From an uncultured Anaerolineae bacterium (GTDB taxonomy: Bacteria > Chloroflexota > Anaerolineae > Aggregatilineales > J027), in NCBI GenBank assembly GCA_964557285.1, contig CAZKZS010000002.1, forward strand, positions 1 through 56,688: a stretch of DNA of 56,688 nt, read 5' to 3'. Made by a program: the position numbers and the translations under genes. A model generated the notes under the pieces. That model saw only the letters and a list, made by a program, of their open reading frames with translations, was not told the DNA's origin and made no database searches. Below, piece by piece: positions 16,628 to 54,336 of this stretch; within the stretch, counting starts at the first letter, position 1, and the number at the start of each line of letters is the position of its first letter.

Positions 16628-16672
16628 GAAAGTTAAGCAAGGTAATCCAATTTACCTGGGAGCCGAGAGGTT

Positions 16673-17083: not shown

Positions 17084-17094
17084 AGGAGTTTTTG

Positions 17095-18029: not shown

Positions 18030-18030
18030 C

Positions 18031-24101: not shown

Positions 24102-24513
24102 AATCTTTAATCACTTCGATGGTTTTGATGTGGGTCACGGTGGCGCTGTCCACATGCACCTCCGGCACGTTGGACAGGCCCATGACGCGAATCTGGCGGT
24201 CCATGATCTTCAGCGCGGCGTCAATGGCCTCCAGGTCACCCGCCGCCGCTTTGTCCCAGACCCCGACCAGCAGCTTGTCGAGCCGGGCCAGCACGAGCAT
24301 GATCCGGTCGTTCGCTTTCTGGGCGTACTGCTGGCGCCATTCCTTCAGGATGGCCTTGTAGTCGCTGGCGATGGTGCCCACCGACACGCCCAGCTTGTCG
24401 GCGATGACGCGGTAAGACACCCCGCCGCGCACCTGGGCCGCGACGAACACCCGGCGCTCCTCAATCGAGAGGCGGTCGGCAGCTTGCGCCTGACGGCGGT
24501 CGTTGAGGGTCAT
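24073..24513 (-). CDS. terS: Terminase small subunit (HTH type)
   Basis: 146 aa. HTH GVSYRVIADKLGVSVGTIASDY. It overlaps the terL start by 29 nt. Confidence 0.65.
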   Translation of the reverse strand: MTLNDRRQAQAADRLSIEERRVFVAAQVRGGVSYRVIADKLGVSVGTIASDYKAILKEWRQQYAQKANDRIMLVLARLDKLLVGVWDKAAAGDLEAIDAALKIMDRQIRVMGLSNVPEVHVDSATVTHIKTIEVIKDYGGPADEPA

Positions 24514-25454
24514 CGTTCAGCCGCTTTTGTGTTCAGGTAATGCTGGGCCAGTTTGACCAGCGCGTCGACGGGGCGATCCGGGTCGATGTCGGCGCGGGCG
24601 ATCAGGGTCTTGATCGCTTTTTGCAGCACGGCCGCGTCTTTGGCCTTGAGGTCGCTGGCACGCAGCAGCACAGGCAGCGACACCAGCGGCAGGCCGTCCT
24701 TGAGGTCGCCGTCCGCGTTGAAGACGTGTTCGGCCAGGTCGCCGGCACGGGCGAGGAAAAATTGCAGGATGAGGTGCAGGGCAACCGCTACATTTTTGAC
24801 ATCGAAGGTGGCGCGGCTGATGTCCAGCGCGTCCAGATAGCGGCCGTAGTCGGTCCATCGCGCCAGCCAGGCTTCGTTCCCCGCCACCAGCTGGGCGGCC
24901 AGGGCAAACGCTTCACGGGCGGCGTCACGTTCGTCCGGCAGAAAGACCAGGCTGACCGTCTGGAAGCCAAAGGCGGCCTCGGACAGCGGCTGGATTTTCG
25001 TCGGCTCCAGCAGAGCAATCGTTTTGTCGTCCACGCCGGAGTACACCCGGTCTTCGACCGTCGGGATGGACTCATAGAGGATTTTGAGGATGGCCGGGTC
25101 ATCCTGCCCGAAGATGCTGTTGTGGGACAGCTGGACGGCGATGCGGCGGGCCGGGTCGTGGTAGCCGAGAATGACCTGAACCTCAATGGTGGCGAGGCCG
25201 GCGTCGATGGCGGCCTGAACGCGGTGGTTGCCGCTGAGGACTTCGAGGAAGGGCTGACCGTCGTCATCCACCTGCGGGGTGCGGGTGGTGTCGTCGTGCA
25301 GTTCCCAGCAGAGTGGGGTCGAGGTCAGCACACCGTCGCGTTTGATGTTTTCAACCAGACGGCGGTACATCTCGGCCGGCATGTAGTGGGCGTTCAGGTC
25401 GAGCAGCTTGAGGGTTCGTGGGTCGACCGTGCGGGTGTGCAGTTGCAGAGTCAT
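24510..25454 (-). CDS. ParB-like nuclease domain protein
   Basis: Internal ATG at 25452-25454 with a GGAG RBS. LDLNAHYMP, DGVLTSTPL and LSGNHRVQAAIDAG form a ParB N-terminal (sulfiredoxin-fold) pattern. 314 aa. Confidence 0.65.
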   Translation of the reverse strand: MTLQLHTRTVDPRTLKLLDLNAHYMPAEMYRRLVENIKRDGVLTSTPLCWELHDDTTRTPQVDDDGQPFLEVLSGNHRVQAAIDAGLATIEVQVILGYHDPARRIAVQLSHNSIFGQDDPAILKILYESIPTVEDRVYSGVDDKTIALLEPTKIQPLSEAAFGFQTVSLVFLPDERDAAREAFALAAQLVAGNEAWLARWTDYGRYLDALDISRATFDVKNVAVALHLILQFFLARAGDLAEHVFNADGDLKDGLPLVSLPVLLRASDLKAKDAAVLQKAIKTLIARADIDPDRPVDALVKLAQHYLNTKAAER

Positions 25455-26809
25455 CGGGAGGGCTCCTGGTGTCCGTGTCTGGCTTTCCAGCGGGGCAGCG
25501 CCTCGGCGAGCGGCCACTGTCCGGCGGCGGCCTGGTAGTTGACCATCCATGCCGTGTCTGCGTCCGGCGTGCGCTTGCGTGAGTACAGCGTAAACAGCCC
25601 TCGGTATTTCATGCTGTTGGGGTTGTCCGTGAAGGCGGTCGTGAAGACGTGGCGAACCCGGTGTTTGTTCATTCGTTCCGCCAGCACCTGGGCCTCGCGG
25701 CTGAGCGCGGCGTACAGCACCAGCTTGGACAGGCGCGGGTAGTCGGTCGGCGCGACGGCGAAGTCGGACAGCAGGTAGATCGTGTCCGGGGCGCTGAAGG
25801 GGTGGGACGGGCTGCTGAAAGCGAAACATCCGACCAGCCGGCCGTCGACCAGGACGGCATAGGCTGGTCCGGCAGCACCCGGCGCGATGTGCCGGTTCAG
25901 GTACTGGGAGCGCAGTGCGTTGAACTGCGCGGGGGTGAGCGGGGCCAGGGACAGGGTATCGCCAATCGGCTGCCCTGGGGACAGGCGCGGCAGCGGCACG
26001 GCGGCCAGCGGCTGGCGGGGCTGCACCACGCCGATTTTGTGGGTCGAGGAGTACATATACACCTCCGGGGCGCGGGGTGTAGTTTTGACGACCCCCCGGA
26101 GCGCCAGGTCGGGTATCTGGAAGTTGAGCCAGAGAATCCAGTGGGCGCGGGTGGCGGCGATGTGCTGGGCCATCCGGGTGATGTCGGCCTGGTTGAGGAG
26201 AGTGTACGCGGGCTGCGGCCAGTCAAACAGGGTGTTGATTTTGGCGAACAGCCGCTCGTAGCCGCCGGCGAAAAACGGCGGAAAGGACAGGAAAGCCGCC
26301 CCGTCGGGCAGCTGGTCGATCCGATCCAGCACGTCCCCGTTGAAGTAGGAGGCCAGCGGCAGGCGCACCGTACCCAGCCGGGCGCGGGTGGTGTCGAGCA
26401 GGCCCTCCCACTGCTGGCGATAGGCGGCCAGCATCCGGCGGTGATACGGGTTGTCGCGCCCCTGTCCGGTTTGGTCCAGGTGGTCGACCATCCGCGTGAG
26501 CAGCATGACGGTGGCGACTTTGCCGTCGTCGGTGGCGAGGCCGGGCTGCATCCACGCCAGGGCGTCGGCAGCGGACGGCTTCAACTGAAAGTGGATCGGC
26601 TGCCCGGCGAAGAACTGCCCCAGGACGTAGGAGTAGACCGAGACATCGTTGCTGTGCAGGCGCATCCCTGGCGCGTACTCGTAGAGCAGCCGCTCCAGGG
26701 TGAAGTGGCCGGAACAGCCAACGTACACGTCGCTGACCTGCCCGACCCATTCGCGGACGGCGGCAGCGATCATCGATCTCACATCGGGCATAGTGGTTCC
26801 CAGAAACAT
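25451..26809 (-). CDS. Two-domain protein: Dam-like (D12-class-like) methyltransferase-fold N-terminal half with atypical FPPF motif, plus uncharacterised C-terminal domain
   Basis: ATG at 26807-26809 with an AAGGA RBS. VYVGCSGHF (motif-I-like) lies about 155 aa before LSFPPFFAGGYERLF (motif-IV-like). The C-terminal VLVDGRLVGCFAFS...IYLLSDFAV is GNAT-like. The assignment is tentative. Confidence 0.3.
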   Translation of the reverse strand: MFLGTTMPDVRSMIAAAVREWVGQVSDVYVGCSGHFTLERLLYEYAPGMRLHSNDVSVYSYVLGQFFAGQPIHFQLKPSAADALAWMQPGLATDDGKVATVMLLTRMVDHLDQTGQGRDNPYHRRMLAAYRQQWEGLLDTTRARLGTVRLPLASYFNGDVLDRIDQLPDGAAFLSFPPFFAGGYERLFAKINTLFDWPQPAYTLLNQADITRMAQHIAATRAHWILWLNFQIPDLALRGVVKTTPRAPEVYMYSSTHKIGVVQPRQPLAAVPLPRLSPGQPIGDTLSLAPLTPAQFNALRSQYLNRHIAPGAAGPAYAVLVDGRLVGCFAFSSPSHPFSAPDTIYLLSDFAVAPTDYPRLSKLVLYAALSREAQVLAERMNKHRVRHVFTTAFTDNPNSMKYRGLFTLYSRKRTPDADTAWMVNYQAAAGQWPLAEALPRWKARHGHQEPSR

Positions 26810-26834
26810 ACGGGGAGTCCTTTGGAAAGAAAAA

Positions 26835-26876
26835 GGCCCGGTCGCAGAGGTACTGAGGGGAAGGTGCGGACCGGGC
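26835..26876 (-). terminator. Hairpin terminator/attenuator after the tRNA-like gene
   Basis: Minus strand: GCCCGGTC ... GACCGGGC (8-bp stem) followed by CTTTTTCTTTCC. An A-run on the other side makes it potentially bidirectional. Confidence 0.5.
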
Positions 26877-26895
26877 AAAAAGTGAAAAATGGTTA

Positions 26896-26966
26896 AGCGG
26901 ACCCCCGGACTCGAACCGGGCAATCCGGCGCGGTACGCCGGCACAGCACCTGGCTGTCCAATCCGC
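26896..26966 (-). tRNA. tRNA-like gene, Gly-type identity with anticodon ACC (atypical)
   Basis: Hand-folded cloverleaf: acceptor GCGGATT/GGTCCGC, D arm ACAG-CCAGGTG-CTGT, anticodon arm CCGGC-GTACCGC-GCCGG, variable loop ATTG, T arm CCCGG-TTCGAGT-CCGGG, discriminator T. Atypical features are G8, G32 and A34. No encoded CCA. Confidence 0.5.
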
Positions 26967-34013: not shown

Positions 34014-34976
34014 ATGGCGTACACATCAACCGTTGAACTGGTACCTGTCGAACACATCGTGCGCGGCGACAACGACCGGGAGGACTTTAACCCGACCGGC
34101 CTGCTGGAACTGGCAGACAGCATCCGGGCGAACGGCCTGGCGCAGAAGCCGGTCTACCGCAAACGGGCGGACGGCATGTATGAAATCGTCGCCGGCGAGC
34201 GGCGGACGCGGGCCATGCGGGACCTCCTGGGCTGGCGTCATATCCCGGCGGAAGTGTCTGAGGACATGGATGACCGCACCGCCAGCGCGATTATGCTGTC
34301 CGAAAACCGGGGCCGTCGCAACCTGAACCCCATTGAGGAGGCACGCGGCTACGCGAAGCGCCTTGACAGTGGGATGTGGGACCTGAAAACGCTGAGCGTT
34401 GACGCGGCGTGCAGCGAGGAGTTGATTAAACGCCGTCTGAAACTGCTGAAGCTGCGAGCGGAGTTGCAGCACCTGGTCAAAAGCGGCAGCCTGCCGCTCG
34501 GCCATGCCGAGGCGCTGGCGGACCTGGACCTCAATCGCCAGCTCCTGGCGTTCCAGGTCTACCGCGACCGGGGGCTGCCCCTGAACGCTTTCCAGGAGGT
34601 GGTGAACCGCTACCTGGCGGATCAGCAGCAGGACAGCCTGTTTGATCTGACCCGGCTGACGCTGGCGGTGCAGGACTACCCGGAGGGGGTGGAGGCCCGC
34701 AGCGGCAAACGTGCGCGGCTGTCGGCTCCCACCAGCCGCACCACCGGGGTGCAGCTGCCGCCCGTTGAAATCCAGGGAGCCAACGAAAACACGGGCGAGA
34801 TTGTGGAACGGTATCTCGCCGCTCTGCTGAGAGAAGGACACCAGGAGGCGGCCGTCGCGGTGGGCAATCTGTACGCCGCGCTGGTCGCCCACAATTATAT
34901 GAGCGCCAGTCCCCGCGCTTACCTCTCACGAGAGGACAGCCAGCGGGCGGGGGAAATCGCTCACGTTACACGATGA
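34014..34976 (+). CDS. ParB/Spo0J-like N-terminal domain protein
   Basis: ELADSIRANGLAQKPVYR, EIVAGERRTRA (GERR box) and ENRGRRNLNPIEEARGY. 320 aa. Confidence 0.8.
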   Translation: MAYTSTVELVPVEHIVRGDNDREDFNPTGLLELADSIRANGLAQKPVYRKRADGMYEIVAGERRTRAMRDLLGWRHIPAEVSEDMDDRTASAIMLSENRGRRNLNPIEEARGYAKRLDSGMWDLKTLSVDAACSEELIKRRLKLLKLRAELQHLVKSGSLPLGHAEALADLDLNRQLLAFQVYRDRGLPLNAFQEVVNRYLADQQQDSLFDLTRLTLAVQDYPEGVEARSGKRARLSAPTSRTTGVQLPPVEIQGANENTGEIVERYLAALLREGHQEAAVAVGNLYAALVAHNYMSASPRAYLSREDSQRAGEIAHVTR

Positions 34977-38090: not shown

Positions 38091-39005
38091 ATGTCCCATG
38101 CACTTCACTGGCGATTCCGTGCCAAAGCGCTCCGGGAAATGCGGTTTGAAGGCCGCCTGGCGATGCTGGTCGCTCTGCTGTCGCACAGCAACCTCCGGCT
38201 GCGCTGTTGGCCGTCAATGCAAACCCTGAGCGAGGAAACAGGGTACAGAAGCGAGGCGCTGAACAAAGCCAAGAAATGGCTGCTCAGCGTCGGCGCGATG
38301 TATGTGGTCCCCTACCGATACCGGGTCGGCAAAGAGCGGGAACTGCCCCGCACACAGCACGTCTACCAGCTGACCGGCGTGATGAAAATCGGTGACCAAT
38401 GGCAGCCCTATCTCTACGTATCCCCGGAGACGGTTCGGGGGATCATTGACGAAATAAAGCAGTTTGTTGTTTTTTCGGAGATCGAAATTTCGACTATCGA
38501 AAATTCGATCAGCGAAATTTCGACCAGCGAAACAGAAGATTCTTTAAAAGAGAAAAAAGGTAGTACCAAGAAAAAAGGTAGTACCAAGAAAAAGACTTCT
38601 CCGTCTCCAGCGCCGGAGGCAGAGCGCAAGCGCAACCTGATTTTCGACGAGGTAGCCCGCCTGCTGTTCCGACTTCAGGAGACAGCCCAACTGGACAAAA
38701 GTATTGCCGGGCGGATCGGCAAAATCACCGCCGCGCTGCGGGCCGAGTACGGCGTGACCGCCCCCCACGACGCTCAACAGGCCGCGCCGGCCGTGGACGC
38801 GCTGCGGAAGTTCGCGGCCTGGTACGACCGGGAGGCGAAAGGCGCCGCCCGCCCGCGTGACCTGACCAAGTTCAAAGAATGGTGGGCCAGTTGGAAGCAG
38901 GCGAACGCGCCGGGTGCACAGGAAGAAACCCCCATCCAATCGGTGGACGGCGACGCCATTCTGCGGCGGCTGGGCATTCGCCCGGCAGGAGGAAGCACGG
39001 CATGA
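38091..39005 (+). CDS. Replication initiator-like winged-helix protein (DnaD/O-like) containing the putative origin
   Basis: ATG at 38091 after GGAGGA. CWPSMQTLSEETGYRSEALNKAKKWL HTH. Followed by the DnaC-like loader with an ATGA overlap. Confidence 0.55.
   Translation: MSHALHWRFRAKALREMRFEGRLAMLVALLSHSNLRLRCWPSMQTLSEETGYRSEALNKAKKWLLSVGAMYVVPYRYRVGKERELPRTQHVYQLTGVMKIGDQWQPYLYVSPETVRGIIDEIKQFVVFSEIEISTIENSISEISTSETEDSLKEKKGSTKKKGSTKKKTSPSPAPEAERKRNLIFDEVARLLFRLQETAQLDKSIAGRIGKITAALRAEYGVTAPHDAQQAAPAVDALRKFAAWYDREAKGAARPRDLTKFKEWWASWKQANAPGAQEETPIQSVDGDAILRRLGIRPAGGSTA
38482..38588. repeat. Iteron cluster plus A-rich direct repeats (candidate origin of replication)
   Basis: TCGAAATTTCGA (38482), TCGAAAATTCGA (38497), GCGAAATTTCGA (38512) and GCGAAAC (38528), with a 15-nt period. 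Then AAAAAAGGTAGTACCAAG x2 (38553-38588). The stretch is locally AT-rich. Confidence 0.6.
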
Positions 39006-39859
39006 CGGAGAGTGTCACCAAGACCAAAGTGCCGCCGACTCATCGCTGGGATTACCCGGAAAAGCCGGCGTGGGCGGTCTGCGACGCCTGTTATGACGCC
39101 GGGTACATTCTGGTGTCGCCCAATGTCCAGCTGGGTCATCCCCTCTACGGTTATGAGGAGCGGCGGGTGTGTCCCGCGCTCTGCCCGAAAGGGCTGTCTT
39201 ACGCCGAGGAGCGCTGGAAGCTGCTGATTCCCCCCGGCTACCAGGGGTTCAGCTTTGAAACCTGGAGCGATCAGCTGGCTGCTGAGGAGAAAAACGGCAA
39301 ATGGCTGGGGTTTGTCGCCTGTGTCCGCTGGTCGCAGGCCGCCGATTTTTACACCTGGTCGCACGACCTGTTGAAGGAGGCCGCGCTGCCTTACAAGAAC
39401 CGGGCGAACTTCTACAAAAACAGCCTGGTGTTGACCGGGCGAGTGGGGACGGGGAAAACCGGGTTGATGGTCGCGGCGGCTCGCCGCCTGCTCGTGCGCG
39501 GGACGCATTTTGTGTATATCCGGCTGGACGACCTGATTGAATCGGTGCAGGCGACCTACCGCAAGGACTCCGGGCAGCCTACCGACGCGGCGCTGGCCCC
39601 TTATAAAGGGGTGCGGGTGCTGCTGCTGGATGAGGTCACTGAGAACACCAGCCGCGACAGGATTGAGATTCTGGAAGGGATCATCCGCTGGCGCTACATG
39701 AGCCGGCGGCCCTTCGTGATCACGACCAATCTCTCTCAAAGTCTGTTCCGCGAGGCATGGGGCGAGCGCATCGCCGATGTGGTCGATGCTCAGGCCCATT
39801 GGGTGGAGGTGCTGGGGAAAAACCTGCGGCCGATTGATCGCCCGCTGGGAGGGGCGTAA
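39002..39859 (+). CDS. DnaC/IstB-like AAA+ helicase loader
   Basis: Walker A GRVGTGKTG, Walker B VLLLDEV and an N-terminal Cys cluster. 285 aa. Confidence 0.8.
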   Translation: MTESVTKTKVPPTHRWDYPEKPAWAVCDACYDAGYILVSPNVQLGHPLYGYEERRVCPALCPKGLSYAEERWKLLIPPGYQGFSFETWSDQLAAEEKNGKWLGFVACVRWSQAADFYTWSHDLLKEAALPYKNRANFYKNSLVLTGRVGTGKTGLMVAAARRLLVRGTHFVYIRLDDLIESVQATYRKDSGQPTDAALAPYKGVRVLLLDEVTENTSRDRIEILEGIIRWRYMSRRPFVITTNLSQSLFREAWGERIADVVDAQAHWVEVLGKNLRPIDRPLGGA

Positions 39860-39862
39860 GCC

Positions 39863-40147
39863 ATGCCGGTGCTGGATTTGCTCTGGAATGAACGGGTGTC
39901 CTCGTACTTTGCAAGCAGCCTGGTCGATGACCTGCTGCTCCGCTGCGCGGTGGAACTCGGCCGGGAGCGGCGGATCAGGCTGCGGAAGCTGTCAGCGCGG
40001 CTGCGGCAGCGCCAGTGGAAGCGGGCGTATGAAGCGGCCATCGCCGCCTACGACGGCGGGCTGAATGATCCCTATATCGACACCCGGCTGGACCTGGTGG
40101 TTGAGTTGGCGCTCGCCCTACACGAGGCCCAGCAGCTGGACGAGTGA
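39863..40147 (+). CDS. Hypothetical protein
   Basis: 94 aa. ATG at 39863. Confidence 0.5.
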   Translation: MPVLDLLWNERVSSYFASSLVDDLLLRCAVELGRERRIRLRKLSARLRQRQWKRAYEAAIAAYDGGLNDPYIDTRLDLVVELALALHEAQQLDE

Positions 40148-40191
40148 TGGTATACTGGGCAGAACGTATGTTCAACAAAAAGGAGGCTCTT

Positions 40192-40635
40192 ATGCCAACG
40201 GAAGGGTACGTTTGGGTTCGCGGATTTGAAGGCGAGTACGAGATCAATGACCTCGGACTCATCCGGGATGTGCGGAGCGGCCAGTGGGTCGCGCCGGCGG
40301 AAAAGCCCGCCACCGCCACCACGCCCGCCCGCCCGTTCGTCCGGCTGTGGACCAGCGACGGCGAGCCGCAGGAAGTGTTTGTGGACGAGATCGTCCCAAA
40401 AGGCGCCCCGGTCCGGCGGCGGCCTGGACCGACCGAGTTCAAAGTTGGCTCCGACGGCGTGGTGACGGTCGAGGAGGAGACGGAACATGACCCGGACCTT
40501 CCTCAGAACTACGAGTCGCTGACCGTTGAGCTGCTGCGGCAGATCGCCGATGCCCGTCACATCACCCTGCCGGCGAAAATCAACAAGGCGGACCTGGTGC
40601 AGATGCTCCGCGACTACGACGCCGAAGCCCGCTGA
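40192..40635 (+). CDS. NUMOD4-motif protein with C-terminal SAP/Rho-N-like helix pair
   Basis: AGGAGG RBS. YVWVRGFEGEYEINDLGLIRDVRSG (NUMOD4-like). LTVELLRQIADARHITLPAKINKADLVQMLRDY. No HNH motif seen. Confidence 0.5.
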   Translation: MPTEGYVWVRGFEGEYEINDLGLIRDVRSGQWVAPAEKPATATTPARPFVRLWTSDGEPQEVFVDEIVPKGAPVRRRPGPTEFKVGSDGVVTVEEETEHDPDLPQNYESLTVELLRQIADARHITLPAKINKADLVQMLRDYDAEAR

Positions 40636-40637
40636 TT

Positions 40638-40650
40638 CCGAACGGTTCGG
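40638..40650. repeat. Palindrome copy CCGAACGGTTCGG with flank (TCCGAACGGTTCGGATTACCTGGGGG)
   Basis: Exact core in the convergent gap between 40635 and 40683, next to the GGGGGC/GCCCCC hairpin. Confidence 0.9.
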
Positions 40651-40682
40651 ATTACCTGGGGGGGCAGCTTTGCCGCCCCCTG

Positions 40683-41237
40683 TCACTCTTTGGGAAGTTG
40701 CTTTTGCAGCGCTTCGATGGTGGCCTCGGCCCGGCCCAGGTCTTTCATCAGGCGCTGTATTTGTTCCTGGAGGTTCTGTTCCTGCCCTTCGGCCCGTTCC
40801 AGCTGCTGGCGGATGACCGCCAGCGTGGCACGGGTTTCGATGAGATCGTGTTCAGCCTGGCGCAGCCGCGCATTTTCCTCGTTGAGGTCGGCCACCTTGC
40901 GGTTCAGCAGGTCGATCTGGGCGGTCAGCTGGCGTTCCACATCGGCAGCCAGCATGACGGTCATTTCTTCGGGGGTTTCGGCGGGCGCCTGGCCGCGCTG
41001 ACCGCGCTCCAGCGCTTGCGCGATTTCCTCATACGTCAGCCCGGCAGCTTTTGAGGTCGCCACCAGGTCAAACACCGTCATGTCGTCGACGGTGAAAAAG
41101 CGGGTGCGGCTGCGCCCCGGATTGGCGCTTGGCGAGAGGTAGCGTTCAAAGGTTTCGGCCCAGTTGATGATCGTCTGGCGGGCCACGCCGAAGCGCCCGG
41201 AAGCCTGTTCTGTGGTGTAGCGGAGTTCGGTCGTCAT
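40683..41237 (-). CDS. MerR-type HTH protein with long C-terminal coiled coil
   Basis: YTTEQASGRFGVARQTIINWAETFERYL...RFFTVDDMTVF, then heptad-rich ~90 aa. 184 aa. Confidence 0.65.
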   Translation of the reverse strand: MTTELRYTTEQASGRFGVARQTIINWAETFERYLSPSANPGRSRTRFFTVDDMTVFDLVATSKAAGLTYEEIAQALERGQRGQAPAETPEEMTVMLAADVERQLTAQIDLLNRKVADLNEENARLRQAEHDLIETRATLAVIRQQLERAEGQEQNLQEQIQRLMKDLGRAEATIEALQKQLPKE

Positions 41238-41297
41238 AGGCCAATCTTATCCACTTTTGTCCAAGTGGCGCTACTTTGCGGCAGATGGAGAAGTGTA

Positions 41298-41402
41298 GAT
41301 CAAGATGGAACTTCATCGTGTGACTTGGATCAAGATTTACAGAGTTGTAAGTTTTAGCAAAAGCGCCTATACTGAGGGCTAAATTTTGTAAGTTCTTGTA
41401 AG
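41298..41402 (+). promoter_or_regulatory. Promoter and short direct repeats upstream of the ParM-like gene (parC-like candidate)
   Basis: GATCAAGAT x2 (41298, 41328). TTGTAAG x3 (41345, 41386, 41396). TTGTAA-17 nt-TATACT (41345-41373). Confidence 0.55.
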
Positions 41403-41411
41403 AGGTTAGCG

Positions 41412-42530
41412 ATGAGCAGTTTACAGCAGGAACACAATGCCATTCTCAGCGAGATCGAGGGGCAGGTGGTGGGTTTGAATGTGGGCAACGGCTTCGTCAA
41501 GGGGACGAACGGCGCCGCCCGGCTGCCCGTGATTCCGTCGGTGGTGTCGGTCATGAATGAGATGGTCGAGTATGAGGAAAACTACTCGCCGGACGACATC
41601 CTGATCGAGTACCAGGGGGTGCGGTATGCGGTGGGATACACCACCCACCGGCTTGGCTCGGCGGCGGTGCCGGATATGTCCGGCGAGCGGATGATGTCCA
41701 GCGACTACCTGATTTTGTTTCTGGCGGCGCTCTCCCTCCTGGACCCCGGCGACAAACGCCGGAACGGGGATTTTGTGCCGGCGCGGGTGGTGCTGGTGGC
41801 ACCCCTCTCCAGCTACAACCGCAACCGGAAGCAGATCAAAAAGTACCTGGCCGGTTCCCACCAGGTCGGCGTCATCCAGAGCGGGCGCCTCCGGCGGACC
41901 GTGACGATCCACATCAGCGAGGACATGCTGAAAATTATCCCGGAAGGCCGGGGCACGCTGGCCTCGCTGACCCTGACCGACGAGGGGCTGCCGGTGGACC
42001 CGGACGGCTACAGCACCCGCACGGTCGGGATCGTGCAGGTTGGCACCCGCACCACCGAGGGCCTGTTTTACGAGCGCTCCCTGCCGAACGACTCGCGGTC
42101 GTGGGGGCTGTCCAAAGTCGGGCTGTCAACGGCCTGGAAGCACCTTCAGGACTATGCCCGCAACCGCCACAACTTCGAGTTGGATATGTACCAGGCCGAT
42201 GAAGCCCTGAAGGCGGGCGGGTTTTACATCGGCAAAAAATGGATCGACCTGGGTGAGGAGGAGCGGAAGGACTCCTTTATCGCCAATGTGGCCCGGCAGG
42301 TTGGCAATGAACTGGCGACCCGCTGGCAGAACGGCGAGGATACCTACCATTTGCTGCTGTCGGGCGGTGGGACGGAGGATGTCTATCCCTACCTGCGCCA
42401 GCGCTTCCCACATCTCACGCGGGTCAAAGACCCGGTGTATGCCGAGGCGGTTGGCGCCTGGAAATACGGCCTCTTCTCTGTGCTGAACGAGATGGGGATT
42501 ATCAAAAGGTACGTTGATGAACAGCAATAA
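41412..42530 (+). CDS. parM: ParM/StbA-like actin-fold segregation ATPase
   Basis: GLNVGNGFVKGTNG (phosphate-1) and HLLLSGGGTEDVYPYL (adenosine/GGG motif). 372 aa. Confidence 0.7.
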   Translation: MSSLQQEHNAILSEIEGQVVGLNVGNGFVKGTNGAARLPVIPSVVSVMNEMVEYEENYSPDDILIEYQGVRYAVGYTTHRLGSAAVPDMSGERMMSSDYLILFLAALSLLDPGDKRRNGDFVPARVVLVAPLSSYNRNRKQIKKYLAGSHQVGVIQSGRLRRTVTIHISEDMLKIIPEGRGTLASLTLTDEGLPVDPDGYSTRTVGIVQVGTRTTEGLFYERSLPNDSRSWGLSKVGLSTAWKHLQDYARNRHNFELDMYQADEALKAGGFYIGKKWIDLGEEERKDSFIANVARQVGNELATRWQNGEDTYHLLLSGGGTEDVYPYLRQRFPHLTRVKDPVYAEAVGAWKYGLFSVLNEMGIIKRYVDEQQ

Positions 42531-42885
42531 AAGAAACCACCGGGATCGGCGCCAGCGCTCCGTCTGGTTCGCGGAGACGGCGCAAGAAAATGCGCTGCAT
42601 GAACTGGTCTGCCAGATGGAAGACCAAAGAATTGAGTTTCGCTTCTGGGTCAAGCAGGTGCTGGCGCAGCTGCTGGATGGCAGCCTGACGTTCAACCGGA
42701 ACACCATGCGGTTTGAGGCAGGCGCCGAGTCGCCCAGCGAAGTGCTGGCGAAGCTGGACGAAATTCTCCTGCGGATGCGGAGCGGCCAGCTGGTCATGAC
42801 GACGGATGTGCCTACCGCGCCGAACCAGGTGCAGGTCAGCCGGACGATCTTCGAGGCGTTTGCGGAGATGGAAGCCGATGATTGA
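42517..42885 (+). CDS. ParR-like adaptor candidate
   Basis: Basic N-terminus, RSVWFAETAQENALHEL (possible RHH) and an acidic tail. It overlaps the parM 3' end. 122 aa. Confidence 0.35.
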   Translation: MNSNKRNHRDRRQRSVWFAETAQENALHELVCQMEDQRIEFRFWVKQVLAQLLDGSLTFNRNTMRFEAGAESPSEVLAKLDEILLRMRSGQLVMTTDVPTAPNQVQVSRTIFEAFAEMEADD

Positions 42886-43051
42886 CGATCCTGGAGCCGT
42901 CGAGGAACGGCTGCGCCGCCGCAAGCTGGTCTTTAAGCCCCGCCAGGTGCGCGTGTTCCGGCAGGTGCGCCGGCGGTCGTTCAAAAGAAAAGGGATGGGA
43001 GATGGACGGAAGCAACGGATCCGCGAAAAGTACGGTGAGACTGCTCCCTGA
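42878..43051 (+). CDS. Small highly basic protein
   Basis: ATG at 42878 overlaps the upstream stop. High third-position G+C. 57 aa, rich in R/K. Confidence 0.45.
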   Translation: MIDDPGAVEERLRRRKLVFKPRQVRVFRQVRRRSFKRKGMGDGRKQRIREKYGETAP

Positions 43052-43169
43052 TGCCCAGGCGCCTGCCCAGGTGGTGAGTGTGGCCGGGGTGTGGGGCTGC
43101 ATCCTGACACTGGCGGCATGGCTTGGCGCCGCCGGGCTGCTGCTGCTGGTCAAGCTGCTGTGGGGGTGA
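43035..43169 (+). CDS. Possible small single-pass membrane protein
   Basis: GTG start. The frame shows high GC3. VVSVAGVWGCILTLAAWLGAAGLLLLVKLLWG. The start is uncertain. Confidence 0.3.
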   Translation: MRLLPDAQAPAQVVSVAGVWGCILTLAAWLGAAGLLLLVKLLWG

Positions 43170-44020
43170 GTGTGGAGAAACAAAAATACCCGCACGCGGA
43201 GATGCTGGATACGGCGGCGCTGCTGGCGCATTGGCTGGCCTCAACATGCCGCCGTTTTGCGTTCGCGGGGTCGCTGCGGCGCGGGGCCGCCTGGGTCGGC
43301 GATATCGAGGTGGTGGCGGTGCCCGGCCCCGATACCCGGCCTGTGCTGGATGACCTGCTGGCGCAAGGCGTCCTCCGCAAGCGCCTGAACGTGAAGGGGA
43401 AACCCATCGGCTGGGGCGAGGAAAACCGCCACGCCGAGTTCTGGGATGGGGGGTATCAGCGCTGGGTGGCGGTTGATTTTTTTCTCACGACATATGAGCA
43501 GTGGGGCATCTATTTTGCGATCCGCACAGGGGACGCGGACGTGTCGCGGCTGCTGGTGACCAACCGGAGCGGCGGTGGACTGCTGCCGGAACCCATGATG
43601 GTCAAAGACTGGCGGCTGTGGAAGCTGCCCTACCCGCGTGTCCCTGGCGAGAATATGGTCCCGGAAGGAAGTGTCTGTCTGCTGACGCGGGAGGAGGTGG
43701 ATGTGTTCCGCTTTCTAAACCTGCCCTACATCGCCCCGTTCAAGCGATATGTGTCAGAGGTGCAGGCCATCCAGCGCTACAACTGGGGGGCACTCGTGGC
43801 GGCGTTGGACGGGCATAAAGACTGGCGGGTAAAGGAGGAGGAATATTTTTTCCGGGGTCAGCGACAGGCCCTGGCTGTGTACGTCAAAGACGCACTGCGG
43901 GGTTACGCGGCGTCCGGTGCCTGGCCGGCGGTCGGGGCGCGGCCAGGGGATACGGTGTACAGCCCGGACGGGCTGCCGTACCCGCTGCGGGCGATTCTGA
44001 ATCGACGGGAGGATGTATGA
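43166..44020 (+). CDS. Pol-beta-superfamily nucleotidyltransferase (Pol X-like palm) protein
   Basis: FAGSLRRGAAWVGDIEVV matches the GS..RRG...GD[IV][DE] NTase motif. The GTG at 43166 overlaps the upstream TGA. The first ATG is at 43202. Confidence 0.55.
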   Translation: MSVEKQKYPHAEMLDTAALLAHWLASTCRRFAFAGSLRRGAAWVGDIEVVAVPGPDTRPVLDDLLAQGVLRKRLNVKGKPIGWGEENRHAEFWDGGYQRWVAVDFFLTTYEQWGIYFAIRTGDADVSRLLVTNRSGGGLLPEPMMVKDWRLWKLPYPRVPGENMVPEGSVCLLTREEVDVFRFLNLPYIAPFKRYVSEVQAIQRYNWGALVAALDGHKDWRVKEEEYFFRGQRQALAVYVKDALRGYAASGAWPAVGARPGDTVYSPDGLPYPLRAILNRREDV

Positions 44021-44940
44021 CGGGAAAATCAGTGATGCTGGCGCCGGTCTTCGACTATACCGTGCTGACGGCAGACGAAGCGGCGTTTTTGGAAGAAGCC
44101 CGCGATTTCATCCGGGCGCGGTATGCACTCACTTATCAGCTGGTGGTCGAGATCGGCGCCCGGCTGATTGCCGTGCGAAACCGGATTCAGGACGGCACCT
44201 GGCTGGCCTGGGTGCGGGCTGAACTGCCGTTCTCGGAAGACACAGCAGAAAATTATATCAATGTCGCCAGGTATCTGCCCCAGGTGCCGGAGCAGGCGGT
44301 GTCGCAGTTCCAGATCGCCGCGCTGTATCGGCTGGCCTCGCCCAACGTGCCGGAGGAGGCGCGGCAGGCCGCCGTGAATCGTGCCAGCCAGGGGTTCCGG
44401 GTCGATAAAGACGAAGCCTATATCCTCTCCCATGCAGACCCGGACACACGGCGGCGGTATTTCAACGGCGAACTTCCCAAGCAGCAGGCCAAAGCGCTGG
44501 TGGAGGCACTGAACCACAAAGGGCTGCCGCCAGTGGTCCGCCGCTTCTGTTTACAGCAGCGGGTCAGTGACGCCGCTGTGGTGCGGTATCTGGCGCAGGC
44601 ATGGTTTGACCGGGAGCGGACGCGGCACCACAAACAGCCGCGCACGACCTGGGACGACCTGGTGGAAGACGGGGCGCTGAACGGGGACGGCTGGGCCGTG
44701 CCCCTGTCGATGGCGAACGAGCGAGATTTGCAGGTCTTCGTGAAGGAGCGCCAGCGGCACCATATCATCGAGGCGATGGAGGAGAAGTGGGAACAGCGGA
44801 TGGGGCGAGGACGGTTGACCCGCGTCCATGGGCAGCTGGTGGTGGCTGACCTCAGCCCGGTGCTGCTGGAGGTCTTTGGGCGTTATGAAGGGGAAGAAGT
44901 CGAAATCCAGATCCGGGTGAGAAAAAAAGCGGGCGGCTGA
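44017..44940 (+). CDS. DUF3102-like protein
   Basis: IGARLIAVRNRIQDGTWLAWVRAELPFSEDTAENYINVARY pattern. 307 aa. Tentative. Confidence 0.35.
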   Translation: MTGKSVMLAPVFDYTVLTADEAAFLEEARDFIRARYALTYQLVVEIGARLIAVRNRIQDGTWLAWVRAELPFSEDTAENYINVARYLPQVPEQAVSQFQIAALYRLASPNVPEEARQAAVNRASQGFRVDKDEAYILSHADPDTRRRYFNGELPKQQAKALVEALNHKGLPPVVRRFCLQQRVSDAAVVRYLAQAWFDRERTRHHKQPRTTWDDLVEDGALNGDGWAVPLSMANERDLQVFVKERQRHHIIEAMEEKWEQRMGRGRLTRVHGQLVVADLSPVLLEVFGRYEGEEVEIQIRVRKKAGG

Positions 44941-44962
44941 GATTCCAAGCCGCCTGTTCCGC

Positions 44963-45253
44963 TCACTCGCCAGCGGGCTGCTGGCGCTCCTGGAGCAGGG
45001 TTTCCAGCTTCAGCAGTTTGGCCCGCAGGGCGTCGAGTTCCTGAGTCAGCGCCGCATCGGTTTCGGCCAGCCGGTGAATTTCCTCGGTGTGGGTATCCCC
45101 CGGTTTTCCCAGACGTTCAGCGAGTTCCTGAGCCAGTTTCAGCGCGGTCGGCACCCAGGAATCGGCCCGGTTGACCGCCTGCCAGGCGCCCAGGAAGGTG
45201 CCGGCGAAGACCCCCAGCGCGGCCAGCAGGGCTTCAAGGTTGGAGTTTTTCAT
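44963..45253 (-). CDS. Small membrane protein with C-terminal coiled coil
   Basis: Internal ATG at 45251-45253. LLAALGVFAGTFLGAW TM segment. 96 aa. Confidence 0.5.
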   Translation of the reverse strand: MKNSNLEALLAALGVFAGTFLGAWQAVNRADSWVPTALKLAQELAERLGKPGDTHTEEIHRLAETDAALTQELDALRAKLLKLETLLQERQQPAGE

Positions 45254-45719
45254 ACACCCCTTCCAATCGACGCCGCAGATCGGCCACTTCCGAGGTTCGC
45301 AGATCAAAGAGATACTGCGCCCGGAAAGAGGAGGCGAGCAGCCACAGCAGGCCGCCGGAGATGACAGCTGCCTGGTAGTCATTCAGCGCCGCCAGCAGCC
45401 AGTTGTTCCCTACAACGGCGAAGTTGGTCAGAATGTAGAGGGTCAGCGGCAGGTTAATGAGGACAAACTGAAGCGGGCGCGGCTGCGAAGTCAGGAACAT
45501 GGCGAAGGTCGCCAGCAGGAACATCAGGCCAACGCCCTGTTTGGTCACCAGGCCCAGCGTGAGGGTGTGGATCAGATCGGTGACCTCGGTCGCCGGGCCG
45601 GAATATAGGGCGATAGTCATCCCTAGATTCACGGAGAAGGCCGCTGTCCGAGGTAGCAAAAGTTTGTTGAGGAATGCGGACAGCGCGGACGGCGCCGTCG
45701 CGGGGGATTGGATGGTCAT
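45234..45719 (-). CDS. Multi-pass membrane protein
   Basis: ATG at 45717-45719 with a GGGAG RBS. 3-4 hydrophobic segments. 161 aa. Confidence 0.55.
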   Translation of the reverse strand: MTIQSPATAPSALSAFLNKLLLPRTAAFSVNLGMTIALYSGPATEVTDLIHTLTLGLVTKQGVGLMFLLATFAMFLTSQPRPLQFVLINLPLTLYILTNFAVVGNNWLLAALNDYQAAVISGGLLWLLASSFRAQYLFDLRTSEVADLRRRLEGVYEKLQP

Positions 45720-45897
45720 TGGTTTGGCTCCCATAAGCGAAAGCGGTGAGGATGAAAGAAGGAAGCCTCACCGCTGTATTTCGCACGCCCGACGGCGGTA
45801 AACCGCCAAGCGCCAGCACAATTTCATTTTAAAGCTAAACCGCATGGGCGTCAAACCTCAAGTGGACTAGAACACAGGTTCTACGGGAGACGAGAGT

Positions 45898-45910
45898 CCG
45901 AACCGTTCGG
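45898..45910. repeat. Palindrome copy CCGAACCGTTCGG (GTCCGAACCGTTCGGAA)
   Basis: Exact core in the divergent region between the membrane-protein operon and P9. Confidence 0.9.
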
Positions 45911-45948
45911 AAATGGGTCTTTTCATGCCAAATTCTAACGCTTAACCC

Positions 45949-45977
45949 TTTACACAAGCTACACAAAAGTGTAGGAT
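45949..45977 (+). promoter_or_regulatory. Promoter P9 with operator CTACAC-AAAA-GTGTAG
   Basis: -35 TTTACA, 17-nt spacer, -10 TAGGAT (45972-77). Palindrome at 45959-45974. Confidence 0.75.
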
Positions 45978-46016
45978 GATATTAGCACACACACCAAGAA
46001 AGAAGGGCACAAGCGT

Positions 46017-51980: not shown

Positions 51981-52034
51981 ATTTCGTTAAATTAAATATA
52001 TAATATTTGCATAAGATGTTATGGGAGTAATCTT

Positions 52035-53336
52035 ATGCCACCCGAACGTCGTGAATTTACAGTTCCCAAAGAGAAGGTGCAGGCAGTTATCGAGCAGGGG
52101 AAATCAAAGGGCTGGACACTCATCAGCCAGCAGCAGCAGGATGGCACAGTTTTGCTGACCTTTGAACATCAGGCGGATGCATCTTCACCTCCCACGAAAA
52201 AACCCTTTTGGAAGGGTCCAAACTGGCTTCTTATCGGCATTCTTGTTTTTTGCTGCGTTTTTTGCTGCGGTGGATTTTCTGTTTTCGCTTTGCTCGTAGC
52301 ACCCAGCGATGAAGAGATTGCCGAGATGCAGACCGTAGAAGCACAGGAACGGGCAATGCGAGATACACAGAGAGCGGAGGACAGCGCCACCGAAATCGCT
52401 GCCCAGAACGCCACCGCGACTATCATAGCCCTGACACCAACGGTCACGCTTACATGGACTCCCACCATGACCAATACCCCTTTACCGACTGAGACGCCAA
52501 CCCCCTTGCCACCAACAGCCACCGTGTTTTACGAACCCGCCGCTGATGCTCAAGGACGTGTTCCAGACGATTTTCAGGCCATGATGACGGCGATGGTCGC
52601 CAGAATCCGGGCGGTGGATGGCGTAATAAACGTGTCGCAGCACACTGTCATGTACGACGGGGACAGACCGGATGGATATTTTACAGGGTTCAAGATTGAG
52701 GCCGAAGACGGGGCCAATGAGGACGAACAATTGGTCACGGAAATCCGTCAGGCCATCCGCAATGTATTGTTTGAATTCTACGGCTCATATCCATACTTAG
52801 GGGTGGCGCTCACCGTTAACGACGGCGACGAACTGATATGGACCTGGGGCAGCGATGATGAAATCTGGTTTGCCCAGAACCCCTCCACCGGGGATACGGT
52901 TTTCCACATTGAGCCAACGGTTGTCCCTACTGCCAAGGCAACTCAGTCACTGGATGAAATTGCAAGTTCAATTATCCGCAACACGGTGGGCACAGAACTG
53001 CGCGATAGTGATGTGGAAATGGTAATCGCAAATGATAGAGTAGTCACCCTGCGTTACCACCTGAGAGAGACTGGTCTCCCATTCTTCTATAAACTCCAAG
53101 CAGATACCGATTTTGTCTTACTGGTCTGCAATCTGCGGAAGAACGGCTTCACCACGCAGACCTTTCAATTCTCAGCCGATGCACCGGTTACAGACAGCTT
53201 TGGAAATAAGGTCTATGTAGAAGCGGTAGAGATGATTCTTGCGCCGGAGACTGCCGCCCGTATCAACTGTGATAATCCTAAAGGAGTCGTACTTGAAGAT
53301 ATTGCAGAACGTTATACGGTGAATCTTCCTTACTAA
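52035..53336 (+). CDS. Membrane-anchored protein with Thr/Pro-rich linker (moron gene 1)
   Basis: TM segment WLLIGILVFCCVFCCGGFSVFALLV and linker TPTVTLTWTPTMTNTPLPTETPTPLPPT. Low-G+C codon usage. 433 aa. Confidence 0.65.
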   Translation: MPPERREFTVPKEKVQAVIEQGKSKGWTLISQQQQDGTVLLTFEHQADASSPPTKKPFWKGPNWLLIGILVFCCVFCCGGFSVFALLVAPSDEEIAEMQTVEAQERAMRDTQRAEDSATEIAAQNATATIIALTPTVTLTWTPTMTNTPLPTETPTPLPPTATVFYEPAADAQGRVPDDFQAMMTAMVARIRAVDGVINVSQHTVMYDGDRPDGYFTGFKIEAEDGANEDEQLVTEIRQAIRNVLFEFYGSYPYLGVALTVNDGDELIWTWGSDDEIWFAQNPSTGDTVFHIEPTVVPTAKATQSLDEIASSIIRNTVGTELRDSDVEMVIANDRVVTLRYHLRETGLPFFYKLQADTDFVLLVCNLRKNGFTTQTFQFSADAPVTDSFGNKVYVEAVEMILAPETAARINCDNPKGVVLEDIAERYTVNLPY

Positions 53337-53438
53337 TAAGCCAGCCGGAGCTACAAGACGTGGCCCGCAAACCCGCGTTTTTTTCGTTATGCTGTAAGAG
53401 TGATGTAAAATATAAGCCAGCGGTCAAAGGAGAAGATC

Positions 53439-54245
53439 ATGAAACGTATGCTTATCCTCTCGATCTTAGCAATGCTGCTTATTGCAGGATTTTCTGAAAT
53501 TGGGCAAGCGCAGGAAGGATTTGCCTGCCCACCTGATCGTGCCTGTCCCGAATTGGTGTTTCCTTCAGAGACCATGACAGGGGAGGTGTTCTGGAACGAA
53601 ATCCCGCTGGGCGCGTTCCAGAATCGCGCCTTTTTTGTGGTTGATCCCGGCCCGCAGACTTTGGTCATTCGGAATATTCAGGATGTCGCGGCCCCCGGAT
53701 TTAATCAGCTTTTTGTCTATCAGGAAGTTTCGGTGAGGGTGAACGTCAGAGTTGGACAGACACGCACATACAATCTCAGGCCGCGTCAGCAGTTCATTCG
53801 CGGCACGTTATCCTTGACATGCAACGTTCGTGAATTGGTAGCGGGTGAAAATATTGTCTGCCAGGCGTTTTCTGATGGAGCCTATTTGGGGGACATTGTA
53901 CCCGGCCAGCGTGCGGATTTTGTGATTGACCCTGGGCAACACACCGTTACCGTTCAGCTTGTCGGCGACGTGGCTTTTCGATGGCTGCCGCCTGATGCTC
54001 AGACTGTAAACATTAGTGCGGGCCGCACCGCACGCATCACTGCACGAATCAATAAGAAAGACTATGGTGGACGACGGGGAGCATCCGTCAACTGTGCCGA
54101 CTTTGAAACGGCGATCTGTGATAATTACTCCACTCCCCGCAGCTGCGACGAAGCTGTTGCAATGGGCATCCCAGCCCGTGATGCTGCCTGCTGTTTCCCT
54201 GCGCGTGATGCAGATAAAGACGGCGTAGCCTGTTATGGAGACTAA
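53439..54245 (+). CDS. Secreted protein with C-terminal Excalibur-like Ca-binding domain (moron gene 2)
   Basis: Signal peptide MKRMLILSILAMLLIAGFSEIGQAQ. C-terminus NCADF...CDEAVAMG...RDADKDGVACYG. RBS AAAGGAG. Confidence 0.6.
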   Translation: MKRMLILSILAMLLIAGFSEIGQAQEGFACPPDRACPELVFPSETMTGEVFWNEIPLGAFQNRAFFVVDPGPQTLVIRNIQDVAAPGFNQLFVYQEVSVRVNVRVGQTRTYNLRPRQQFIRGTLSLTCNVRELVAGENIVCQAFSDGAYLGDIVPGQRADFVIDPGQHTVTVQLVGDVAFRWLPPDAQTVNISAGRTARITARINKKDYGGRRGASVNCADFETAICDNYSTPRSCDEAVAMGIPARDAACCFPARDADKDGVACYGD

Positions 54246-54253
54246 AATAAAAA

Positions 54254-54271
54254 TGCTGCCGAGAGGCAGCA
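54254..54271. terminator. Bidirectional hairpin terminator
   Basis: TGCTGCC gaga GGCAGCA. An A-rich run upstream on plus gives a T-run for the converging minus-strand lysis gene. Confidence 0.55.
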
Positions 54272-54336
54272 ACAGCGCAGTGCGGGCATGGCAGCCCATT
54301 TCAATGAAGCCAGGGACAGTAGACTTGAACCGCGTC

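Follow-up and report, generated by a model that had tools for sequence, protein, structure and literature searches.

The 56,688-nt stretch of DNA analyzed here (hereafter the window; contig CAZKZS010000002.1) is a complete, circularly closing tailed-phage genome of the siphovirus type. Positions 40683-42885 appear to form a self-contained, separately regulated segregation module that most likely works like the ParMRC systems of plasmids. The module consists of a gene for an actin-like protein (ALP), a small putative adaptor gene directly downstream, a divergent gene for a MerR-type helix-turn-helix (HTH)/coiled-coil protein, and the control region between the divergent genes (coordinates in Table 1). 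The cassette is real and of a known kind, namely an actin-type DNA segregation cassette on a phage; what appears to be new is the conserved third gene, encoding the MerR/coiled-coil protein, together with the fixed loss of both phosphate-loop Asp residues from the ALP. That the module partitions a plasmid-prophage (phage-plasmid) is plausible, at slightly under an even chance, and is not established by sequence alone.

The map is circular: in contigs from three other sequencing runs, window position 56688 is followed immediately by position 1. Identity to the window is 100% for seven contigs and 99.9% for an eighth (one mismatch and one indel), and these eight fall into four separate series of SRA run numbers (source runs SRR17055905-917, SRR19543875, SRR29850213 and SRR32688036). 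The longest contig encoding the identical ALP measures 57,348 bp, and host DNA flanks the phage in none of the contigs examined. The genome has a G+C content of ~62% and encodes a complete phage gene set (portal, large terminase (TerL), capsid, protease, tape measure and Dit) without an integration module. No close relatives of the phage were found in phage, plasmid, IMG/VR or GTDB collections (portal identity at most 47%), and a megablast search with positions 40000-46000 returned zero matches in the phage collection. A search with the portal protein found no relative among 185,579 GTDB species genomes, and all its relatives in the phage and plasmid collections lie below 31% identity; therefore no host can be assigned.

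The ALP contains the motifs LNVGNGFVKG and LLSGGGTED and scores above the cut-offs for the Pfam domains ALP_N (PF17989; 66.3 bits, cut-off 26.3) and MreB-like_C (PF21522; 28.2 bits, cut-off 27.8). It matches phrog_691, annotated 'partition protein', at 4e-33, and its residues 19-353 align end to end with the solved structure of pCBH ParM (PDB ID: 6ixw, E 2e-7). Identity to plasmid ParMs is 23-30%, and the NCBIfam ParM model gives 49 bits, far under its cut-off of 417. From these alignments we assign the product to the ParM/ALP actin-fold family.

The putative adaptor gene occupies the ParR position, and its start overlaps the ALP stop by 14 nt; the product has 122 aa from an ATG or 123 aa from a TTG at 42514. 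A basic N-terminus (NKRNHRDRRQR) and a conserved N-terminal domain of ~45 residues are followed by a linker and by an acidic, conserved C-terminal tail (FEAFAEMEADD). The adaptor has no sequence match in Pfam or the PDB, and no RHH family came up for the whole protein or the N-terminal domain in Pfam (matches up to E <= 10 included) or in PDB profile searches. AlphaFold2 (AF2) models built from a single sequence and from four sequences were of low confidence (predicted local distance difference test scores of 46 and 52), with the same order of elements in both: a basic disordered N-terminus, a coil at residues 14-20, helices at 22-36 and 41-54, a hairpin and third helix, a disordered linker, and a C-terminal helix at 109-119. 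The pattern QRNVxFG...G-h-x-x-x-VVKxML resembles the strand-helix-turn-helix of Arc/CopG, judged by eye only, and the modeled N-terminal elements (residues 14-20 as a possible strand, plus two helices) would fit a putative ribbon-helix-helix (RHH) domain.

The control region has a G+C content of 42%, against ~62% genome-wide. It holds two copies of the direct repeat GATCAAGAT, the first of which forms part of an imperfect inverted repeat GATCAAG-N6-CTTCATC, and three of the five TTGTAAG copies of the whole window, which fall within 58 bp; a 6-bp inverted repeat, CCACTT/AAGTGG, is not significant alone. When the 174-bp spacer was dinucleotide-shuffled 5000 times, 4.6% of the shuffles contained a 9-mer repeat, 0.9% a 7-mer in three copies and 0.3% both, and on this basis the repeats are non-random. 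The promoter-like site TTGTAA-17-TATACT is the only sigma-70-like match across 40500-45000. Its -35 hexamer lies in a TTGTAAG repeat, and two further copies, 10 bp apart, stand between the -10 element and the Shine-Dalgarno (SD) sequence. At the far end of the module, a palindrome and a G+C-rich hairpin (40637-40680) sit between the convergent upstream replication operon, which stops at 40635, and the MerR-like gene, whose stop is at 40683, and separate the two; we infer a terminator role for them. Arms related to those of the hairpin occur in the repeat families I1 and D9 of the window.

The product of the divergent gene matches Pfam MerR_1 (1.9e-7), and its residues ~95-184 (~90 residues) match coiled-coil families only. 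The best PDB match of its profile is the DNA-binding domain of RacA, a weak one (E 1e-3).

An HMMER scan of 1.84 billion cluster representatives (50% identity; E <= 1e-3) matched 563 ALP relatives, of which four are close (37-46% identity). All four are encoded on phage-like contigs: L006 (SRR20596264_5740; 70 kb, with terminase and portal), L007, L008 (where the MerR-like gene is truncated by the contig end) and L009 (Ga0613813_000140; 64.6 kb, with DnaB, loader and tail genes). In 4/4 a divergent MerR-HTH/coiled-coil gene, the ALP gene and an overlapping or abutting small gene (113-149 aa) stand together, and the flanking genes differ throughout while the trio stays. Within this clade of five, the small proteins are homologous (26-33% identity), as are the MerR-like proteins (23-34% identity). 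More distant ALPs (~30% identity; L022, L023, L026 and L027) also keep an overlapping or abutting small gene, which brings to eight the related loci with an adaptor gene arranged in this way beside the ALP. By hhalign, the adaptor matches the small protein of L022 over the N-terminal domain (E 5e-5) and that of L023 not significantly (E 0.016); both of these proteins end in A-[FL]-x-D-[FM]-[DE]-D. The MerR/coiled-coil gene is present at 5/5 clade loci and absent from two of the four wider-family loci, the other two being too short upstream. Since distant loci keep the pair, two of them without a MerR gene, the ALP-adaptor pair appears to be the ancestral unit, with the MerR-like gene, as found, limited to the clade. 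At every locus a promoter-like site is surrounded by short repeats, direct or inverted, that are particular to that locus, often with copies both at the -35/-10 elements and directly before the ribosome-binding site; L006 shows an analogous arrangement, with GTACA repeats at its -35 element and again ahead of the SD, and L008 has the most elaborate array. Four genes that follow the adaptor (42878-44940) are translationally coupled and share the ALP operon; because they are not kept beside the module in L006-L009, where the neighbors differ, they probably lie outside the machine.

Other searches found fewer relatives. The ALP clade profile had none in viral, genome or metagenome contigs (genomes: 185,579 GTDB species), and the plasmid collection PLSDB gave distant ALP matches only, below 31% identity. 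A word-indexed homologue search with the ALP returned the query alone, a 25-sequence profile returned four proteins, and the adaptor profile returned only the known four.

Most of what the initial annotation had read from this region stands: the actin-fold motifs (supported by both Pfam ALP domains, phrog_691 and the 6ixw alignment), the divergent MerR-type protein with a long coiled coil, the promoter amid the repeats, and the parC-parM-parR layout, which the relatives share. Every repeat that it listed is present where it was placed, and only the term 'repeat-laden' overstates the case beside about ten iterons in R1 parC and 24 repeats in CGP3 alpS. For the 122-aa protein, the overlap, basic N-terminus and acidic tail are as described, and the possible RHH found no confirmation in Pfam or the PDB.

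We propose that the adaptor, probably as a dimer and through its N-terminal domain, binds the three TTGTAAG repeats and perhaps also the two GATCAAGAT copies. Bound there, in the promoter and 5' untranslated region of its own operon, it would autoregulate the operon and mark the phage DNA. Its C-terminal A-F-x-x-M-E/D-D tail would capture the ALP, whose filaments would move the copies of the circular phage genome or set their position. As a clade-specific third part, the MerR-like protein may bind the same control region and regulate or tether the adaptor-DNA complex in the manner of TubY. We infer each of these steps, from DNA binding through filament formation to a lysogenic plasmid state, and in particular the binding of the adaptor to the control-region repeats.

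The active site of the ALP departs from that of canonical ParMs. In the alignment with pCBH ParM and relatives, the phosphate-1 Asp is replaced by Asn23 and the phosphate-2 Asp by Gln209, positions that hold Asp/Asp in both pCBH ParM and R1 ParM. Among 140 aligned relatives, Asp is found at phosphate-1 in 124, at phosphate-2 in 124, and at both in 121, whereas all five clade members have Asn at phosphate-1 and Gln, Asn or Thr at phosphate-2. The trailing Asp of the TTD motif is Glu in 4/5 clade members (Glu216 in the ALP). Of the hydrolysis motif set (DxG, DxG, Glu and GGG), the ALP thus has two Asp replaced and retains the catalytic Glu178 and the adenosine GGG motif (318-320). Because the replacements are fixed across a clade of 37-46% identity, they do not represent decay. 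Loss of the equivalent Asp in R1 ParM (D170) abolishes hydrolysis and partition and still allows polymerization. The Asp losses lower any claim to a canonical hydrolyzing ParM and leave the actin-fold assignment untouched; the clade ALPs probably bind nucleotide, with hydrolysis likely to be slow or mechanistically different. In the initial annotation, a lack of ATPase activity had been named as a point that would tell against partition, and the substitution of both phosphate-loop Asp touches on it in part. A further feature of the clade is a C-terminal extension, E-x-G-I-x-K-x-Y (window ~42490-42527), which is found in 4/5 of its ALPs (P0004 ends before it) and was not found in the wider ALP family; it could contact the clade-specific MerR/coiled-coil partner.

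The remodeled site (Asn23, Gln209 and Glu216) also allows for a static tether, in which slow or non-hydrolyzing filaments, together with the MerR-like protein, would anchor the genome at a fixed site (pole or membrane), as RacA and KfrA do, without pushing copies apart by dynamic instability. We consider this quite unlikely. It draws on the substitutions being fixed in 5/5 clade members against Asp/Asp in 121/140 relatives, on a MerR/coiled-coil partner that was found only with this clade (5/5 loci), and on the chromosome anchor RacA as best structural relative of the HTH. However, hydrolysis may persist through a compensating Glu216, the argument being one from sequence; the RacA match is weak and limited to a generic MerR-type HTH; and the MerR-like protein does not have the Lys-rich membrane-binding tail of TubY.

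How the phage would use the module depends on its lifestyle. All predicted genes (~95 open reading frames (ORFs)) were scanned against Pfam, small ORFs as concatenates, and 40 of these proteins also against PHROGs or NCBIfam; none matched an integrase, resolvase, tyrosine or serine recombinase, DDE transposase or protelomerase. These families are usually easy to detect, and over half of the ORFs lack any family match, leaving room for a very divergent recombinase. With no integrase, the phage, if temperate, must therefore be extrachromosomal.

The arrangement of operators points the same way. The 16-bp palindrome CTACAC-N4-GTGTAG occurs nine times in the window against 0.64 expected, with eight copies occupying the spacer and -10 element of sigma-70-like promoters, and this family looks like the regulon of a single repressor. 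The ALP promoter has no such operator; it and a site TTGACG-17-TAAAAT (45854-45826, minus strand) are the only two strong promoter-like sites of the early region without one. The pattern is consistent with genes that remain active under a repressor that shuts off the remainder, and a maintenance unit expressed from a prophage would look like the operator-free ALP operon. Because there is no integrase, eight promoters can be silenced and the ALP promoter escapes the operator, stable inheritance as a low-copy extrachromosomal prophage is the most likely use of the module. The second operator-free site drives two minus-strand genes (45234-45719 and 44963-45253) oriented against the surrounding operons, which encode a multi-pass membrane protein and a membrane/coiled-coil protein and could be holin/lysis or superinfection-exclusion genes. 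The MerR-like protein was considered as a possible global repressor acting on CTACAC-N4-GTGTAG and set aside for lack of support: the operator is missing from the intergenic region of its own gene, and the 21-kb stretches of L006 and L009 showed nothing comparable to this operator family.

Plasmid inheritance gains further from the clonality of the element across datasets, from its low-G+C island of secreted/membrane proteins, and from a Bacillus plasmid with the gene order rep, ParM, small gene, on which lysozyme and holin-like genes are found as well. The Bacillus phages IEBH, which has no recombinase, and vB_BtS_B83 (B83) are plasmid prophages with a ParM-like protein and RHH cassette (PMC8026635). 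The initial annotation had concluded that the element may persist as a low-copy extrachromosomal prophage. Its premises have held up, since family scans of the ~95 ORFs uncovered no recombinase in 56.7 kb, repressible operator-promoters are multiple, the layout is as described and contigs spanning 56688/1 supply the closed circle that it had suggested looking for; the lifestyle conclusion itself does not follow, as similar cassettes occur in lytic and in integrated phages. Phage-plasmids are increasingly recognized gene-transfer vehicles that are identified mostly by 'partition genes plus no integrase', and the present case shows both the reach and the limits of that rule. If the plasmid state is true, phage-plasmids would extend to a high-G+C host lineage without sequenced relatives.

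Several observations weigh against inheritance as a plasmid. The candidate cis-acting site holds only 3 + 2 short repeats, and R1 parC has ten iterons. The RHH fold of the adaptor was not demonstrated in the Pfam, PDB or AF2 results, and canonical dynamic instability is doubtful because both phosphate-loop Asp are replaced. Terminally redundant virion DNA yields a circular map equally, and the same operator pattern would result if a lytic phage used a Cro-like early shut-off. The sole recognizable initiator/loader operon lies behind an operator-bearing promoter (36926), and no separate plasmid replicon, toxin-antitoxin pair or multimer/dimer resolvase was recognized among the window genes. Beyond distant matches, no resident copy of relatives of the ALP clade or the portal was found in GTDB species genomes or PLSDB; an extrachromosomal replicon in host cells was not observed, the phage being known from metagenome contigs with a circular map. 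Distant members of the ALP family sit in SPO1-like Bacillus phages, and SPO1-like phages are strictly lytic. A partition system in a phage is no guarantee of plasmid replication (PMC8026635), and in the integrated prophage CGP3 the AlpC/AlpA pair serves replication after induction, not inheritance (PMC4446434).

The trio might instead act in the lytic cycle, as AlpAC does, tethering replicating genomes to filaments for replication or packaging; the phage could then be virulent or persist in another way. This is possible, if on the improbable side. CGP3 AlpC/AlpA follow the same logic, combining an ALP with an adaptor transcribed alongside it and 7-bp repeats in their own promoter region, are needed for efficient phage replication, and are deemed by the authors unlikely to act in segregation (PMC4446434). 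The relatives in SPO1-like phages suit such a role, as does the dearth of plasmid-type maintenance genes and of resident copies in genome and plasmid collections, and in both the window and L009 the module belongs to the early/replication region, where it comes right behind the genes for the initiator and the helicase loader. However, an ALP promoter free of the operator is unexpected if the module is co-regulated with replication, and adjacency to replication genes is also seen in the Bacillus plasmid with phage lysis genes. The clonality of the element across datasets, and the missing integrase, which would make a temperate phage extrachromosomal, speak more for plasmid inheritance.

It is highly improbable that the ALP has nothing to do with DNA positioning and serves, for example, to manipulate the host cytoskeleton or cell shape, with the small and MerR-like proteins as ordinary regulators. 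The ALP does match NCBIfam FcmB, a filament-morphology actin-like protein, weakly (1.7e-5, far under the cut-off), and ParMs encoded in genomes have been proposed to play roles other than partition (PMC12270681). Yet in every relative the ALP and adaptor genes again form a tight, translationally coupled pair, the conserved tail included, and promoter-embedded repeats are a hallmark of DNA tethering of the ParMRC/AlpAC type.

Table 1. Coordinates of the segregation module and of other features of the 56,688-nt window.
Feature	Position	Strand	Basis or remark
MerR-type HTH + coiled-coil protein, 184 aa, divergent	40683-41237	-	Pfam
Control region, candidate cis-acting site, 174 bp	41238-41411	.	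repeats + promoter-like site
Inverted repeat CCACTT-N6-AAGTGG	41251-41268	.	sequence scan
Direct repeat GATCAAGAT, two copies	41298, 41328	.	sequence scan
TTGTAAG, three copies	41345, 41386, 41396	.	sequence scan
Promoter-like site TTGTAA-17-TATACT, ALP operon	41345-41373	+	promoter scan
SD GAGG	41402-41405	+	sequence read
ALP, ParM/ALP family, 372 aa	41412-42530	+	Pfam, PHROGs, PDB alignment
Putative adaptor in ParR position, 122 aa	42517-42885	+	ORF, homologues after ALPs
Very basic protein, 57 aa	42878-43051	+	gene call
Membrane protein, 55 aa	43002-43169	+	gene call
Protein with faint Pol-beta-like matches, 284 aa	43166-44020	+	gene call, Pfam
DUF3102 protein	44017-44940	+	gene call, Pfam
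15-bp palindrome TCCGAACGGTTCGGA	40637-40651	.	sequence read, module boundary
G+C-rich hairpin GGGGGGGCAGC-TTT-GCCGCCCCC	40658-40680	.	sequence read, module boundary
Replication-initiator-like gene	38091-39005	+	contains tandem repeats
IstB/DnaC-like loader, after initiator-like gene	39002-39859	+	family match
Operator copies in promoters	14940, 27084, 28127, 31156, 36161, 36930, 45959, 48516		pattern search
Operator-bearing sigma-70-like promoters, heads of + strand operons	14930, 27074, 28117, 31146, 36151, 36920, 45949, 48506	+	promoter scan
Weaker operator sites	33951, 20638		pattern + promoter scan
Weaker ninth promoter site	33953		pattern + promoter scan
XRE-type HTH protein, candidate repressor	17661-18029	+	weak matches to repressor PHROGs
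TCCGAAC-N-GTTCGGA	5787, 13496, 15531, 20544, 27016, 30247, 36214, 40637, 45897, 50344		pattern search
Dit	4468-5331	-	family scans
Tape-measure protein	5335-8427	-	family scans
HK97-type capsid protein	11660-12952	-	family scans
Prohead protease	12993-13973	-	family scans
Portal/MuF fusion	20560-22764	-	family scans
TerL	22776-24101	-	family scans
ParB/Spo0J/Noc-family protein	34014-34976	+	ParB_N + HTH_ParB; TIGR00180 85 bits vs cut-off 58
Second protein with ParB-like N-terminal domain	24510-25829	-	phrog_7405/723
Phage DAM-like domain fused to phage GNAT-like domain	25451-26944	-	Pfam E 3e-67, 7e-54
tRNA-Gly (anticodon ACC)	26896-26966	-	
RNase H	17092-17532	+	E 5e-44
DnaQ-like exonuclease	18497-19456	+	family match
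Three paralogous tail-fibre-like genes	475-1146, 1155-~1820, 1817-2485	-	common N-terminal segments (repeat families D5, D7)
433-aa protein, transmembrane segment + Thr/Pro-rich linker	52035-53336		no family match
268-aa protein, signal peptide + Cys-rich C-terminus	53439-54245		no family match

The genome also encodes two proteins with ParB-like domains (Table 1). No ParA was found anywhere in the genome beside the ParB/Spo0J/Noc-family protein, and canonical parS (TGTTTCACGTGAAACA, allowing <=3 mismatches) is absent from the window. A 15-bp palindrome, TCCGAAC-N-GTTCGGA, occurs in ten copies against 0.23 expected, mostly at gene or operon ends, and could be an orphan ParB site or an RNA hairpin/terminator element. 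The ALP and this ParB gave weak, sub-threshold matches to proteins of the PRTRC system; that assignment was rejected, as the ALP scored 37 bits as protein D against a cut-off of 215, the ParB scored 90 against 279, and no ThiF-like gene was found.

Within the replication-initiator-like gene, three overlapping copies of a tandem 15-bp repeat (TTCGAnnATCGAAA-like; 38474-38532) probably mark an origin that lies inside the initiator gene, as it does in lambda O, and L009 has analogous GGTACGACTGACGTACCA iterons (5850-5930) in the gene preceding its loader. The tRNA-Gly overlaps the annotated 5' end of the DAM/GNAT-like ORF, whose true start is therefore probably internal. With regard to the DAM-like domain, GATC is present in both GATCAAGAT copies of the ALP control region. 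An island at 52000-54300 (G+C 51% versus ~62%), with the 433-aa and 268-aa proteins, looks like recently acquired cargo. One of the three tail-fibre-like paralogues has a weak C1q-domain match, and the tape-measure gene contains 135-bp tandem repeats (5821-6703, minus strand). Between two blocks of structural genes, a plus-strand block (16189-19456) encodes an ASCH-domain protein, three small Zn-ribbon-like proteins and an XRE-type HTH protein, besides the RNase H and the DnaQ-like exonuclease.

Known systems resemble the module in different parts. In architecture, the MerR-like protein can be compared with TubY, RacA and KfrA. RacA, the chromosome anchor of B. subtilis, shares with it an N-terminal winged HTH, a long coiled coil and presumptive DNA anchoring, the match being weak and confined to the HTH. 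KfrA of IncP plasmids likewise has an N-terminal winged HTH and a long coiled coil and acts in DNA anchoring or segregation. The TubZRC systems of pBc10987, pBtoxis and phage c-st also have a separately transcribed MerR-HTH/coiled-coil gene, tubY, beside the motor/adaptor operon, and TubY binds in the promoter region of tubRZ, becomes part of the complex between TubR and the centromere, and is needed to maintain the plasmid (PMC7762940). The TubZ motor, however, is a tubulin-like GTPase (PMC7762940), whereas that of the window is actin-like. The Lys-rich amphipathic C-terminal tail of TubY is missing from the MerR-like protein (which ends in ALQKQLPKE, with no Lys cluster), and no sequence similarity to the solved C-terminal domain of TubY was detected, so that by sequence it would be a TubY analogue at most, not a family member. 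We speculate, while thinking it rather unlikely, that the five-member clade constitutes an undescribed three-component actin-type phage segregation system, the actin counterpart of TubZ-TubR-TubY, in which stable filaments of a slow or non-hydrolyzing ALP, coupled by the MerR/coiled-coil protein to the adaptor-marked genome, keep an integrase-less phage as a plasmid.

Among phages, IEBH and vB_BtS_B83 are likewise siphoviruses with a ParM-like protein, a small adaptor, a putative centromere and headful or circular maps, and IEBH, like the window, has no recombinase; their plasmid state was observed in isolates (PMC8026635), whereas no resident copy of the window phage was found. The Bacillus relatives examined are, unlike the window, without a divergent MerR gene. 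AlpC/AlpA/alpS of the Corynebacterium prophage CGP3 share the phage ALP, the co-transcribed DNA-binding adaptor and the 7-bp repeats in the operon promoter, and differ from the window in that CGP3 is integrated, AlpAC acts after excision, alpS has 24 repeats and no MerR/coiled-coil partner has been described (PMC4446434).

A further parallel is ParMRC itself (R1; pCBH of Clostridium botulinum, 6ixw), with which the module shares the ALP family, a small basic adaptor directly downstream, repeats that overlap the promoter, and implied autoregulation. Against ParMRC, the window ALP has 23-30% identity, with Asn/Gln in place of the phosphate Asp, there are 3 + 2 repeats rather than ~10 iterons, and RHH is not demonstrated; the module adds the conserved MerR/coiled-coil gene and sits on a tailed-phage genome. 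Whatever the lifestyle of the phage, the co-inheritance of the MerR/coiled-coil gene and the Asp replacements are testable departures from the two-protein ParMRC paradigm, and they could reveal how bacteria regulate actin-like filaments or employ them as static tethers.

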